A stretch of DNA of 38,673 nt from a virus, in the IMG/VR virus record IMGVR_UViG_3300031673_006185, one strand, 5' to 3'. This document shows positions 7,126 through 11,968 of this stretch, piece by piece. A model generated the notes under the pieces. That model was not told where the DNA came from. It saw only the letters and a list, made by a program, of their open reading frames with translations, and ran no database searches. The translations under genes were made by a program, and so were the position numbers. Each line of letters starts with the position of its first letter. The first letter of the stretch is position 1.

Positions 7126-8256
7126 ATGTGGTCTTTTACTGGTTTTGGGGCGAGATTAGATCTGTCCAAAGTGCGATCTGATTTCCGGCAGGTTTCGGAT
7201 AGCGGATTAACTTTTATATGTCCCAGAAAAAATATGTGGGATTGGAGTTTCGAAGAGAGATTCCTGCGTTCAATTATCGTTGATCAGGATGGCTATGTAG
7301 TATCATCAGGTTGGCCAAAGTTTGGAAACTATGGCGAATTTTTGGATGATACTGAAACGCTTAAAAAAGATCTTGAAGATGGTGCGCCTGTAAGATTTAG
7401 CCACAAAGAAGACGGATCTCTGTGTATTCGATCAGTTATAAATGGCCAGGTAATTCTTCGTACTCGTGGAACCTTATATGGTGGCGAGCGTGGAGAAGAT
7501 GGAATGGAATCTTATAAGGAAAGATTTTTTCGAACTGCCCAGAAGTATCCGAAAATATTAGATTCTAACTGGATGACAGACCGATCTCTTTTATTCGAGT
7601 ATGTAGCACCAGGCAATTTAGTTGTAATACGATACAAGGAAGAAGACTTGGTGTTCCTTGGGTATGTAGATCATTCTTTACATATCGGGCACTGGTCTGA
7701 GGTGGAAGCTGTGGCGAAAGAGGGCCAGTTAAATCTTGTACGTCTGCACGATCTGCCACGAGATCCGTTGGAACTCTTGGAAATTATAAAGACTTGGAAA
7801 GATGAAGGTGTGGTTGCCAGATGTGATCAAGATCAGGTAATGGTCAAAGTAAAAAGCGCCCATTACCTGGCCCAACACAGGATGAAGTTCTCCATAAATT
7901 ATAGATTTATGGTAGAGTTTGCGGAACTATCTGGTATTAATAGTGAAGCAGACTTAATAAAAGAACTACAGGCTTGTGATTATGATTATGAGATTATAGA
8001 AACTACCCTTCCGTTTTATCATAGATACAAAAGAGCGTCTGTTTCTGTTGATAATACGATACATGAAGCTCATGAGGTAATCAATAACTTTTCGTCTGAT
8101 AAAACCGATGAGGTTGGAAGGAGAAAAGAACTTGCTATGTTGATAAGCAAACTACATGGACATATCAAGCCATTTGTGTTTGCTCTTTATGATAAGAAGA
8201 TGAGCAGAGTGGACGCTCTTAGACGAAAAACAATTCTAACCGAGGGTAAAAGATGA
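7126..8256 (+). CDS. ATP-dependent RNA ligase (T4 Rnl1-like)
   Basis: Motif I FSHKEDGSL (KxDG, the Rnl1-type KEDGSL), motif IV EGVVAR, motif V MVKVKSAHY; 376 aa. Confidence 0.65.
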   Translation: MWSFTGFGARLDLSKVRSDFRQVSDSGLTFICPRKNMWDWSFEERFLRSIIVDQDGYVVSSGWPKFGNYGEFLDDTETLKKDLEDGAPVRFSHKEDGSLCIRSVINGQVILRTRGTLYGGERGEDGMESYKERFFRTAQKYPKILDSNWMTDRSLLFEYVAPGNLVVIRYKEEDLVFLGYVDHSLHIGHWSEVEAVAKEGQLNLVRLHDLPRDPLELLEIIKTWKDEGVVARCDQDQVMVKVKSAHYLAQHRMKFSINYRFMVEFAELSGINSEADLIKELQACDYDYEIIETTLPFYHRYKRASVSVDNTIHEAHEVINNFSSDKTDEVGRRKELAMLISKLHGHIKPFVFALYDKKMSRVDALRRKTILTEGKR

Positions 8257-9614: not shown

Positions 9615-11968
9615 TGACTAAAGAAAATACAGACCTTATTAAACTGCCTTTACTTCCACTTCGTGATCCTGAACTTGTGGTTTTTCCAGATTTGCTTTGT
9701 GAAGTAGATGTGGGCAGGCCCTTTTCGGTCAAGGCAATAAATAAAGCAAAAGAAGATGGATCTAATTTGATTGTTGGTATGCAGAGTGATCCTCTCGTCG
9801 ACAAGCCTGTGGCCGGGAATTTTTACGGTTGTTGTACTGAAGCAGAGATTAAGAACGTACTTCCACTGGATAAAGAAGGAGCCAAACTTCGTATTATTAT
9901 TGTGGGCAAGAAACGTGGCATTTTAAAAGTAGTTGGGGAGGATGATGGATCTTATTGGGGAGAGATGGAACCCGTAGTTGAGCCGGAAATTGAGATTGAT
10001 GATGATGTAAAAAACGACATTCGGCAGGCAAAAGATTTTATCAAAGATCAAGTTCAGTTTATTGCTATAGAGAACGATACAGAACTAACAACATCAGCAG
10101 AACTGTCCAAGTTCGTTGATGGTATTGCTGGTCAACTACCCATTAGTGGCAAGAAAAGGGTAACGATTTTGGGAATGTTCAATCCCAAGGATCGTTTGAA
10201 ATGTGTGGTAAAAGAACTGGCTGAAATTGCTAACAATATAGAAGCAGATGTTAATGCGGATGCTGGCATGAGTGAAGATCCTTCCAATGATTCTTCGCAT
10301 GGTATAGCTGGTGAGGTAAAACAGCTGAGCCAGCGTATTGAGAAGTGTGGTATGCCACCCGCCGTAATGAAAACTATAAAGGGAGAACTCCGTAGGCTTT
10401 CTATGATGTCACCCAGTAACTCTGAGTTTCAGGTTACTTATAATTATCTTGACAACCTGGCATCTTTGCCATGGGATAAGACAACTCAAGATAAGATAGA
10501 TATCGAGGATGCTAAAGTAGTTCTTAACGAAGATCATTATGGATTGGAAAAGGTAAAAGAAAGGATCTTGGAGTTTCTTGCTGTTAGAAAACTAAAGCCT
10601 GAGCGCAAAGGATCTATTCTTTGTCTTTCTGGTCCTCCGGGTGTGGGGAAAACTTCTCTTGGGAAAAGTATTGCCAGGGCAATGGGAAGAGAATTTATCC
10701 GTATGTCTCTTGGTGGTGTGAATGATGAGGCAGAAATTCGTGGACATAGACGGACTTATGTGGGTGCTATTCCTGGCCGTATTATGGATAACATCAAGAA
10801 GGTTGGATCTAAGAACCCAGTCTTTATGCTTGATGAGGTAGACAAGTTGTGTTCCAATTTCCGTGGTGATCCTTCATCGGCACTTCTGGAAGTGCTGGAT
10901 CCTGAACAAAACCATGCGTTTGTTGATCATTATCTGAGTGTGCCATTTGATTTATCTCAGGTTCTTTTTATTGGTACAGTAAATGAGACTGCGCCAATTG
11001 CTCCTGCTCTTAGAGATAGGTTGGAAATTATTGAGATCCCTGGGTATTCTCCTTCTGATAAGGTTAAGATAGCTCAAAATCACTTGGTGCCAAAGCAGAA
11101 AGAAGAGAATGGTGTTGCTGATAAGGACATTACATTGTCTGCACTGGCCATTACAAGAATTGTTGAGGAGTATACAAGTGAGGCTGGGGTTCGATCTCTT
11201 GAGCGAGAATGCGGAACGGTTATGAGGAAGATGGCTGTGATGGTTGCTTCCGAGAATGAGCCTCCTAAAATAATTGAAGAGGATATGATCCCAACATATC
11301 TTGGCCCGCCGAAGAGTTTTGCGGAGAGGGCTATGGACAAGCCCGAGATTGGGTTGAGTGCTGGTCTGGCCTGGAGCAGATATGGTGGTAGTCTATTGTT
11401 TATTGAAACTTCTCTTACACCAGGAAAGGGAAAGATCAAGCTTACTGGTAATTTAGGTAAGGTTATTCAAGAATCTGCTGAAGCCGCACATACTTGGATC
11501 TGTGCCAACGCGGACAGACTAAACGTTTCTGCTGACGTATTAAAGCAACATGATGTTCACATTCACTTTCCTTCTGGAGCTGTTCCAAAAGAAGGACCGA
11601 GTGCTGGTATAGCAATCGCAGCATCTATGCTGTCTGCTTTTACAAACAAGCCTGTTCGGAATGACATTGCCATGACTGGAGAGATTACTCTACGAGGACG
11701 CGTACTTCCGATTGGTGGACTTAAGGAAAAGATCCTTGCTGCGCACAGGGCTGGAATCAGACAGGTTATTTTCCCAGAGAAGAATAAACATGACGTAGAA
11801 GAGATTCCTGTTGATGTAGCAGAAGATATGATGTTTACTACAGTATCAACACTGGAGGAGGCATTGGTTTTGTTGCTGTTGGATGAAGCCAAGCCTATGG
11901 AACCTGGGGATATAAATCCAGGAACTGGAGAACAGTTGATGAATAAAGAAGCTTGTAAGGTAAAGTAA
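9614..11968 (+). CDS. lon: Lon protease (LonA type)
   Basis: N-terminal LON domain (LPLLPLRDPELVVFPD), AAA+ GPPGVGKTS, S16 protease domain with PKEGPSAGIA (catalytic Ser) and GGLKEKILAAHRAG (Lys); 784 aa. Confidence 0.9.
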   Translation: MTKENTDLIKLPLLPLRDPELVVFPDLLCEVDVGRPFSVKAINKAKEDGSNLIVGMQSDPLVDKPVAGNFYGCCTEAEIKNVLPLDKEGAKLRIIIVGKKRGILKVVGEDDGSYWGEMEPVVEPEIEIDDDVKNDIRQAKDFIKDQVQFIAIENDTELTTSAELSKFVDGIAGQLPISGKKRVTILGMFNPKDRLKCVVKELAEIANNIEADVNADAGMSEDPSNDSSHGIAGEVKQLSQRIEKCGMPPAVMKTIKGELRRLSMMSPSNSEFQVTYNYLDNLASLPWDKTTQDKIDIEDAKVVLNEDHYGLEKVKERILEFLAVRKLKPERKGSILCLSGPPGVGKTSLGKSIARAMGREFIRMSLGGVNDEAEIRGHRRTYVGAIPGRIMDNIKKVGSKNPVFMLDEVDKLCSNFRGDPSSALLEVLDPEQNHAFVDHYLSVPFDLSQVLFIGTVNETAPIAPALRDRLEIIEIPGYSPSDKVKIAQNHLVPKQKEENGVADKDITLSALAITRIVEEYTSEAGVRSLERECGTVMRKMAVMVASENEPPKIIEEDMIPTYLGPPKSFAERAMDKPEIGLSAGLAWSRYGGSLLFIETSLTPGKGKIKLTGNLGKVIQESAEAAHTWICANADRLNVSADVLKQHDVHIHFPSGAVPKEGPSAGIAIAASMLSAFTNKPVRNDIAMTGEITLRGRVLPIGGLKEKILAAHRAGIRQVIFPEKNKHDVEEIPVDVAEDMMFTTVSTLEEALVLLLLDEAKPMEPGDINPGTGEQLMNKEACKVK

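Follow-up and report, generated by a model that had tools for sequence, protein, structure and literature searches.

A virus-restricted AAA ATPase family with a novel N-terminal domain, encoded beside a complete LonA protease in a clade of huge bacteriophages

The IMG/VR record IMGVR_UViG_3300031673_006185 is a viral DNA of 38,673 nucleotides (the whole of this stretch is called the window below), and two adjacent plus-strand genes at positions 8253-11968 encode an AAA ATPase followed directly by a Lon protease. We find that the ATPase, judged by its sequence, represents a subfamily of classical AAA ATPases that is restricted to viruses, has a novel N-terminal domain and had not been described before, that the Lon belongs to a new lineage of this well-known enzyme borne by phages, and that both are carried by one of a clade of huge bacteriophages. 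We tentatively favor the idea that the ATPase would be an ATP-gated accessory of Lon, made together with it from an RNA ligase-AAA-Lon gene block, and we hold this idea short of conviction. The three genes of the block and their parts are as follows:

7126-8256, plus strand: T4 Rnl1-type RNA ligase (PF09511, E = 3e-11; phrog_562, E = 6e-31)
8253-9614, plus strand: phage-specific AAA ATPase, 453 aa, with a novel N-terminal region and a single classical-clade AAA module (PF00004)
8400-8579, plus strand: AAA ATPase residues 50-109, a long basic helix and a second helix that form a hairpin (AlphaFold2 model, pLDDT ~74-78)
8598-8936, plus strand: AAA ATPase residues 116-228, a compact alpha/beta domain (AlphaFold2 model, pLDDT ~90)
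8970-9587, plus strand: AAA ATPase residues 240-445, the AAA module
9045-9071, plus strand: AAA ATPase Walker A GDPGSGKTT, residues 265-273
9201-9206, plus strand: AAA ATPase Walker B D317-D318 (Asp-Asp)
9333-9353, plus strand: AAA ATPase arginine fingers in RRPGRFD, residues 361-367 (sensor-1 is N351)
9614-11968, plus strand: full-length LonA protease, 784 aa (Pfam domains; TIGR00763; phrog_15585, E = 5e-239)
Lon residues 10-203, plus strand: LON_substr_bdg (PF02190, E = 2.4e-23)
Lon residues 336-473, plus strand: AAA (PF00004, by Pfam)
Lon residues 497-549, plus strand: Lon_lid (PF22667, by Pfam)
Lon residues 554-755, plus strand: Lon_C, the S16 protease domain (PF05362, E = 5e-78)
10631-10657, plus strand: Lon Walker A, residues 340-348 (G340-S348 invariant)
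Lon Walker B D407/E408 and pore-loop Y382, plus strand (invariant in the clade alignment)
11600-11602 and 11729-11731, plus strand: Lon catalytic S663 and K706 (invariant in the clade alignment)

An earlier note on this DNA had described an AAA ATPase gene directly before a Lon gene, and both open reading frames are present at 8253-11968 with the GDPGSGKTT and RPGRFD motifs that it cited. The only family match of the 453-aa protein is to PF00004 (residues 261-373, E = 6.7e-17). The claim that about 250 novel residues precede the AAA module held up in a domain search: residues 1-250 have no sequence match in Pfam, NCBIfam or PDB, and comparison of the predicted structure with the structure databases gave no significant fold match, the dsRBD-like Foldseek matches of the N-domain being weak (probability <=0.5, E >=0.12). 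The AlphaFold2 model of the whole protein (mean pLDDT 79.6) consists of a disordered tip, the basic helical hairpin, the alpha/beta domain and the AAA module, and the alpha/beta domain at residues 116-228 has no detectable relative outside the family. The hairpin region bears the family motif K.KDP.S.GLG.LSAYG, of which Y82, K88, P90, G96 and S99 are conserved in an alignment of 25 family sequences. No transmembrane anchor was seen in the N-region, whose hydropathy maximum of 1.46 is under the typical transmembrane threshold.

A word-indexed database search gave about 40 full-length relatives, all of them metagenomic, and the next matches were CDC48-type proteins that align in the AAA module only. 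A profile of the N-domain (residues 45-238), run against 1.84 billion proteins, finds only 49 representative clusters. The full-length members are almost always 390-480 aa long and consist of the N-domain plus one AAA module; there are two longer ones, an 817-aa protein with an intein in its Walker A motif (P0246) and a protein with an N-terminal extension (P0014). Pattern scans detect a single family member in each IMG/VR genome and a single one in the window. A tree of the family groups the Lon-adjacent proteins together, with the remaining members branching outside this group.

The AAA module has the Walker A, the sensor-1 and the second region of homology with two arginine fingers that define the classical AAA clade. 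Residues G265, G268, G270, K271, T273 and N351 and the stretch R362-P-G-R365-F-D are invariant in the 25-sequence alignment and largely kept in the wider family, and the same alignment shows a GMTGAYL lid motif that is typical of classical AAA proteins. We conclude that the protein probably binds ATP and oligomerizes, with a ring as the predicted form. Two features set the family apart. The Walker B is Asp-Asp rather than the classical hhhhDE with its catalytic Glu; this pair is invariant in the 25 sequences and is found likewise in the wider family, where two members have Asp-Asn instead. Alignment with VAT/p97 shows that the family lacks 7 residues where pore loop 1 would be, so that this loop is gone, and another 9 at pore loop 2, and no conserved aromatic residue occurs at the pore-loop positions across 71 family members. 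Because both pore loops are lost and the Walker B is Asp-Asp, the protein would be unable to thread polypeptides in the usual way, and it is unlikely to be a threading unfoldase.

How does this protein compare with the known families of AAA ATPases? The best sequence and fold matches of residues 240-445 are CDC48/p97/VAT, PAN/Mpa and FtsH, and the best profile matches in PDB are the CDC48/VAT/PAN unfoldases (E ~1e-45). The protein shares with them the Walker A, the sensor-1 Asn, the RPGRFD fingers and a GxxGAxL lid motif that replaces the sensor-2 arginine. Unlike them it has one AAA module, lacks DPBB, coiled-coil/OB and protease domains as well as the pore loops, and has Asp-Asp as its Walker B. 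It is not a CDC48 (a single module, no match to PF02359 or PF02933, and 38.7 against a cut-off of 802.65 for TIGR01243), and it is not a PAN/Mpa (44 against a cut-off of 500 for the PAN model NF003069, and no OB-ring among the N-domain fold matches). Nor is it a BCS1, as there is no Pfam BCS1_N match and its hydrophobic helix is below the transmembrane threshold. BCS1 and Bacillus subtilis YjoB, which have family-specific N-domains, are both absent from the 60 N-domain fold matches listed (Z down to 6.0).

The protease is a complete LonA, as the earlier note had said. All four domains are present, the protein scores 777.6 bits against a cut-off of 608.05 for TIGR00763 (endopeptidase La), and it falls below the cut-off of the E. 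coli-type model NF008053 (652 against 891). It has the substrate-binding N-domain, the AAA+ module with lid and pore-loop Tyr and the S16 Ser-Lys dyad of LonA enzymes, and the Walker A, D407/E408, Y382, S663 and K706 are invariant in 16 of 16 aligned Lons of the phage clade. Thus it is apparently a genuine LonA with intact catalytic residues and is predicted to be active. A database search returned about 35 clusters with 54-100% identity, a further three, from a distant sub-lineage, at 45-48%, and then bacterial LonA at 44-47%. The phage Lons are monophyletic and lie apart from all sampled bacterial LonA in 100 of 100 neighbor-joining bootstraps; the trees are neighbor-joining rather than maximum-likelihood trees, and the bacterial LonA sampled were those closest to the query in sequence. 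The earlier note had proposed a phylogeny of Lon as a check on whether the window is cellular, and the result is a separate phage clade that is nested neither in a bacterial lineage nor in bacterial synteny; Lon is a vertically inherited phage lineage and not a recent capture from a host. Branching within the clade is poorly supported (16-24% bootstrap), so we claim no exact position for the sub-lineage in which Lon and the ATPase gene are not adjacent. Compared with bacterial LonA (MEROPS S16, TIGR00763), the phage enzymes share the N-domain, the AAA+ module with lid, the S16 domain, the Walker A and B, the pore-loop Tyr and the Ser-Lys dyad. They differ in being encoded by huge phages, in forming a separate clade with 44-48% identity to the nearest bacterial sequences, in having a dedicated AAA gene upstream in most members, and in carrying a Walker A intein in some.

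These inteins contain a LAGLIDADG_3 domain, start with AQPLDA.VLTP.G..EM.NIDIGT and are homologous in the Lons and in the AAA family. They are inserted at the same Walker A position, between GxxGxGK and T, in the Lons P0126, P0128, P0130, P0149 and L055:3983-7393 and in the AAA protein P0246, and the intein-bearing Lons of the clade are about 1135 aa long. The presence of such an intein in the Walker A of one AAA member implies that the site is under selection to function. In one relative, L002 (a 306 kb contig of GCA_902730225.1), Lon is split at 11374-13721 into a 734-aa open reading frame and a 48-aa one with the Lon_C end, by a frameshift, an assembly error or decay to a pseudogene.

The window (38.7 kb, G+C ~38%) has every substantial open reading frame on the plus strand, tightly packed or overlapping, and many of these match phage PHROG families. 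Relatives of the AAA protein sit on metagenomic contigs of 115, 306, 316, 340, 442 and 461 kb; an alignment-based scan of IMG/VR found the family in viral genomes of 316, 318, 340 and 442 kb, and further carriers are JGI and NCBI contigs of 461 and 306 kb. (A scan of IMG/VR with the single AAA sequence gave no match, unlike the alignment-based scan.) The element is thus a huge phage, since the AAA relatives are on contigs of 115-461 kb of which four are IMG/VR viral genomes, and the relatives are classed as viral, exceed 200 kb and have phage-type gene content; this bears out the earlier description of the window as phage-like. DNA and protein searches found no close relative of the window in deposited phage genomes, and the Lon matches in those genomes were only fragmentary or probably host-derived. 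No virion genes were seen in the stretches that were examined.

The RNA ligase gene runs four bases into the AAA gene (stop and start sharing ATGA), the AAA stop and the Lon start overlap by one base (TAATG) and are preceded by GAGGAGG, and promoter- and terminator-like sites in 5500-13000 do not rise above the shuffled expectation. Because the genes overlap and there is no promoter or terminator signal beyond chance, the RNA ligase, AAA and Lon genes look co-transcribed and translationally coupled. The AAA gene lies directly before Lon in seven distinct phage genomes, with gaps of -1 to 50 nt (the window, L001, L002, L003 (the same as L007 and L035), L004 (the same as L008 and L032), L005 and L006 (the same as L033)), and across these genomes identity to the window falls to 34% for AAA and 45% for Lon. 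Equal contig sizes point to six additional AAA-Lon pairs on the same contig. The genes that flank the pair vary. RNA ligase is directly upstream in four genomes, two small open reading frames separate it from AAA in L002 with none between AAA and Lon, and in L004 it is not beside AAA at all and the AAA-Lon pair is intact. RNA ligase orthologs in L001 and L055 are 51-53% identical to that of the window.

If the two proteins act together, they might do so as follows. Lon would work as a hexamer in which the N-domain recognizes substrates, its own AAA+ ring threads them with Tyr382 and the Ser663-Lys706 dyad cleaves them; in this it would be like cellular Lon and would not require an external unfoldase. 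The AAA protein, which keeps nucleotide binding and inter-subunit arginine fingers, would be an ATP-dependent ring or switch whose alpha/beta N-terminal domain binds a partner or substrate, and it would select, present or gate substrates or regulate Lon. It would act as a Lon accessory because it would be made stoichiometrically with Lon. Along with the GroEL found across the clade and with the window's peptide deformylase and IF3 (below), the two proteins could give the phage its own protein turnover during a long infection. Three things here are inferences: that the AAA protein forms a ring, that it is linked to Lon in any physical or functional way, and what its biological targets would be.

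Several observations weigh against an accessory role. Gene order is the sole link between AAA and Lon, and a fusion of AAA or its N-domain to Lon, sought as Rosetta-stone evidence among the family members, was not found. L034 (318 kb), L055 (244 kb) and L112 (51 kb) have Lons that are 57-69% identical to the window Lon and have no adjoining AAA gene; in these Lon directly follows a Peptidase_M10-like gene or an RNA ligase ortholog (53% identity), and Lon evidently works without an adjacent AAA. On two of the three contigs an AAA-family gene whose product is 30% identical is found at a distance of 15-17 kb, flanked by NAD synthase and PP2C genes. This divergent copy of the sub-lineage, seen in L009 and L031, stands in a conserved order in which NAD synthase, one or two small open reading frames, AAA and a PP2C phosphatase follow one another and a gene for an approximately 619-aa protein lies slightly further on. 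More divergent AAA members adjoin ThiF-like or unrelated genes, and the contexts of the very divergent ones, mostly on short contigs, show no consistent partner. Finally, a neighborhood of about 20 kb is syntenic as a whole (RlaP ... RNA ligase-AAA-Lon ... DUF7227 ... E2-JAB-E1-NAPRTase), so the AAA-Lon adjacency may reflect inherited order and not function. We therefore regard the conserved adjacency as suggestive, not compelling, evidence of function.

The alternative that we take most seriously, and which we think quite possible, is that AAA is a non-threading ATP switch or remodeler that is independent of Lon, that the two genes are neighbors by inheritance only, and that Lon acts alone. 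The partner of AAA could then be in the upstream RNA-repair block (RlaP, a nucleotidyltransferase, the Rnl1 ligase and a vault-like protein) or in some other process. The overlap of the AAA start with the RNA ligase stop fits this alternative, as does the presence of RNA ligase beside or near AAA in L001, L003 and L005 too, and so do the retention of Lon without an adjoining AAA and the divergent members that adjoin PP2C/NAD synthase or ThiF genes and not Lon. The strongly basic helix of the N-domain and the dsRBD-like Foldseek matches point the same way, but those matches are not significant. The AAA-Lon pair, on the other hand, persists in L004 where the RNA ligase is not adjacent, the ligase-AAA junction is interrupted in L002 and the AAA-Lon junction is not, and AAA-Lon is the only pair that is never interrupted in the seven side-by-side genomes.

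The accessory role that we favor could be given a more ambitious form, in which the AAA protein is the founder of a set of virus-only, pore-less AAA rings that dock on or gate viral Lon and possibly read the products of the nearby phage operon for ubiquitin-like conjugation. We consider this a long shot; if true, a pore-less AAA ring and Lon would be a private, programmable tag-and-degrade system against host defense or regulatory proteins. Doubtful to a slightly greater degree is the broader reading that AAA, Lon and the ubiquitin-like conjugation genes of the window (Prok-E2_D, Prok-JAB and ThiF/E1, in an operon at 15739-18605 with flanks at 14840-15742 and 18605-19033) make up a phage tag-and-degrade pathway in which the AAA N-domain reads the tag. 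Lon is followed at a distance of 4-8 kb by the E2/JAB/E1 operon in the window, L001, L002, L004, L034 and L112, a divergent AAA member directly follows a ThiF-like gene in L029, and the AAA module is similar to those of the Cdc48/PAN clade, whose members recognize ubiquitin-like tags in other systems. Several unrelated genes intervene, however, inside a block that is generally syntenic, no ubiquitin-binding domain was detected in AAA, which has no pore loops, and the ThiF adjacency is a single locus.

The earlier note had also raised the possibility that the AAA protein is an unfoldase for Lon. That the protein threads substrates and passes them to Lon is, in our estimate, still more improbable. 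Its AAA module is closest to CDC48/VAT/PAN, with sub-threshold NCBIfam matches to PAN and CDC48, and its gene adjoins a protease gene, but pore loops 1 (aromatic-hydrophobic-Gly) and 2 are deleted in every family member, the catalytic Glu of Walker B is replaced by Asp, and LonA has its own unfoldase ring with the pore-loop Tyr intact. We know of no precedent for an external unfoldase stacked on LonA. Least credible by far is that the window is a piece of an ordinary bacterial chromosome that bears housekeeping genes of the host. It does contain typical cellular genes (Lon, GroEL, IF3 and peptide deformylase), each of which passes or matches cellular family models, but the open reading frames are densely packed on a single strand, there are PHROG matches and relatives that are IMG/VR viral genomes of 316-442 kb, the Lon and GroEL clades stand apart from bacterial sequences (44-48% and 54-59% identity), and the neighbors are phage-type RNA-repair, DUF7227/GP88 and NAD-salvage genes.

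We regard functional coupling of AAA and Lon as plausible. It is known that phages inhibit host proteases or exploit them, and a complete, vertically inherited LonA lineage in phages has barely been documented. The known modulators of Lon are small factors that alter its activity or its choice of substrates, among them the phage-encoded T4 inhibitor PinA and the adaptors SmiA, HspQ and LarA. To our knowledge none of the four is an ATPase, as the AAA protein is by its sequence. Should AAA indeed modulate Lon, it would be the first cofactor of Lon that is an ATPase, and also a natural case of a classical AAA ring that no longer threads substrates. If it is unrelated to Lon, the family is still compact, well defined and virus-restricted, and an N-domain with no known fold relatives makes it a target for structural and biochemical work.

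Known defense systems that pair an AAA-type ATPase with a serine protease, as here, are the two-gene IetAS and the Lon-like BrxL of BREX. PADLOC matched IetA on the AAA P-loop only (23 bits) and BrxL on the generic Lon_C (59 bits), with no full-length match, and we rejected an identity with either defense system because only the P-loop and Lon_C match. The phage pair differs from both in having a complete LonA and not a subtilase or MCM-Lon, and in being phage genes and not parts of host defense islands. The literature searched, in which journal coverage was partial, held no description of the AAA family or of the AAA-Lon pair. A review of jumbo phages (PMC7824862) lists ClpP, ClpS and SprT-like peptidases and not Lon, and a survey of huge phages (PMC7162821) mentions initiation factors and peptide deformylase and no Lon or chaperonin. 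A survey of huge-phage ATPases (PMC8297831) refers in general terms to ATPase-protease proteins and to "LAGLIDADG fused to ATPase domains," and the latter may correspond to the Walker A intein forms described above.

The earlier note had placed the two genes in an unusually rich set of genes for protein quality control, with GroEL but not GroES, an S2P intramembrane protease, a secreted S1 protease and two HExxH proteins, and had raised the possibility that the element may remodel or take over host protein quality control. The genes of this kind in the window are the following:

26638-27156: HExxH open reading frame (HELSH), family matches all sub-threshold
28661-29302: HExxH open reading frame (HEIGH), family matches all sub-threshold
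29299-29970: S1, HtrA/DegP-like protease domain without PDZ, with a lipoprotein-type signal peptide, MKTLNKIGLCLLMCMTLSC
30333-30848: AAA_33/KTI12-like P-loop kinase, upstream of GroEL and not a GroES
30845-32458: GroEL (TIGR02348, passed with 726.8 bits against a cut-off of 582.1)
33538-34570: IF3 and peptide deformylase, side by side
36817-37518: M50-like membrane protein (HEYAH)

The GroEL is real and no GroES was found in the window (tblastn with an E. coli GroES query); the GroEL gene starts at 30845 and not at 30848. The open reading frames and motifs of the S2P (M50), S1 and HExxH proteins exist as well, but the family matches of the HExxH proteins are sub-threshold, and for GroEL, the M50 protein and the second of the HExxH proteins the starts given earlier differ from these by 3 to ~200 bases. 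GroEL orthologs that are 58-91% identical occur on Lon-bearing phage contigs of 461, 316, 155, 145, 92, 74, 39 and 37 kb, and bacterial GroEL begins at about 54-59% identity to the window GroEL. Lon plus GroEL is a lineage trait of the phage clade; because the two are conserved together across it, the set of protein-quality-control genes belongs to the lineage and was not assembled by chance. Pseudomonas phage EL gp146 is reportedly a GroEL-type chaperonin that works without a co-chaperonin. The window GroEL, a predicted chaperonin, is like gp146 in that it passes the GroEL model and no GroES was found with it in the window; it differs in belonging to a different phage lineage. The IF3 and peptide deformylase genes fit the earlier huge-phage reports (PMC7162821). 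Lon and GroEL across the clade, here with peptide deformylase and IF3, support the view that huge phages bring their own machinery for protein production and turnover.

Two further genes upstream of the RNA ligase are the following:

2152-4707: protein of 851 aa with the shoulder domain of Major Vault Protein (PF11978, E = 1e-17) and without a match in PHROG or NCBIfam
6509-7123: 204-aa protein with about eight tandem repeats of ~24 aa (Q.LSEDFI..F.D...W..IS; phrog_3532, E = 1e-60)

The vault-shoulder protein has an 824-aa ortholog in the 461 kb phage L001, and its gene follows that of the RlaP nucleotidyltransferase. A second nucleotidyltransferase-like gene is among the neighbors before the RNA ligase, and the RlaP/vault-like stretch looks like an RNA-repair block. 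The window also encodes a DUF7227 protein, an NAPRTase, an ATP-dependent DNA ligase, a methyltransferase and a DHH phosphoesterase. In L112 a faint Prok_Ub gene lies upstream of the ubiquitin-like operon. The ThiF-like gene that precedes the divergent AAA member of L029 encodes 192 aa, and downstream of that member, at 9195-12203, there are nine tandem open reading frames of ~105 aa that are possibly paralogous.

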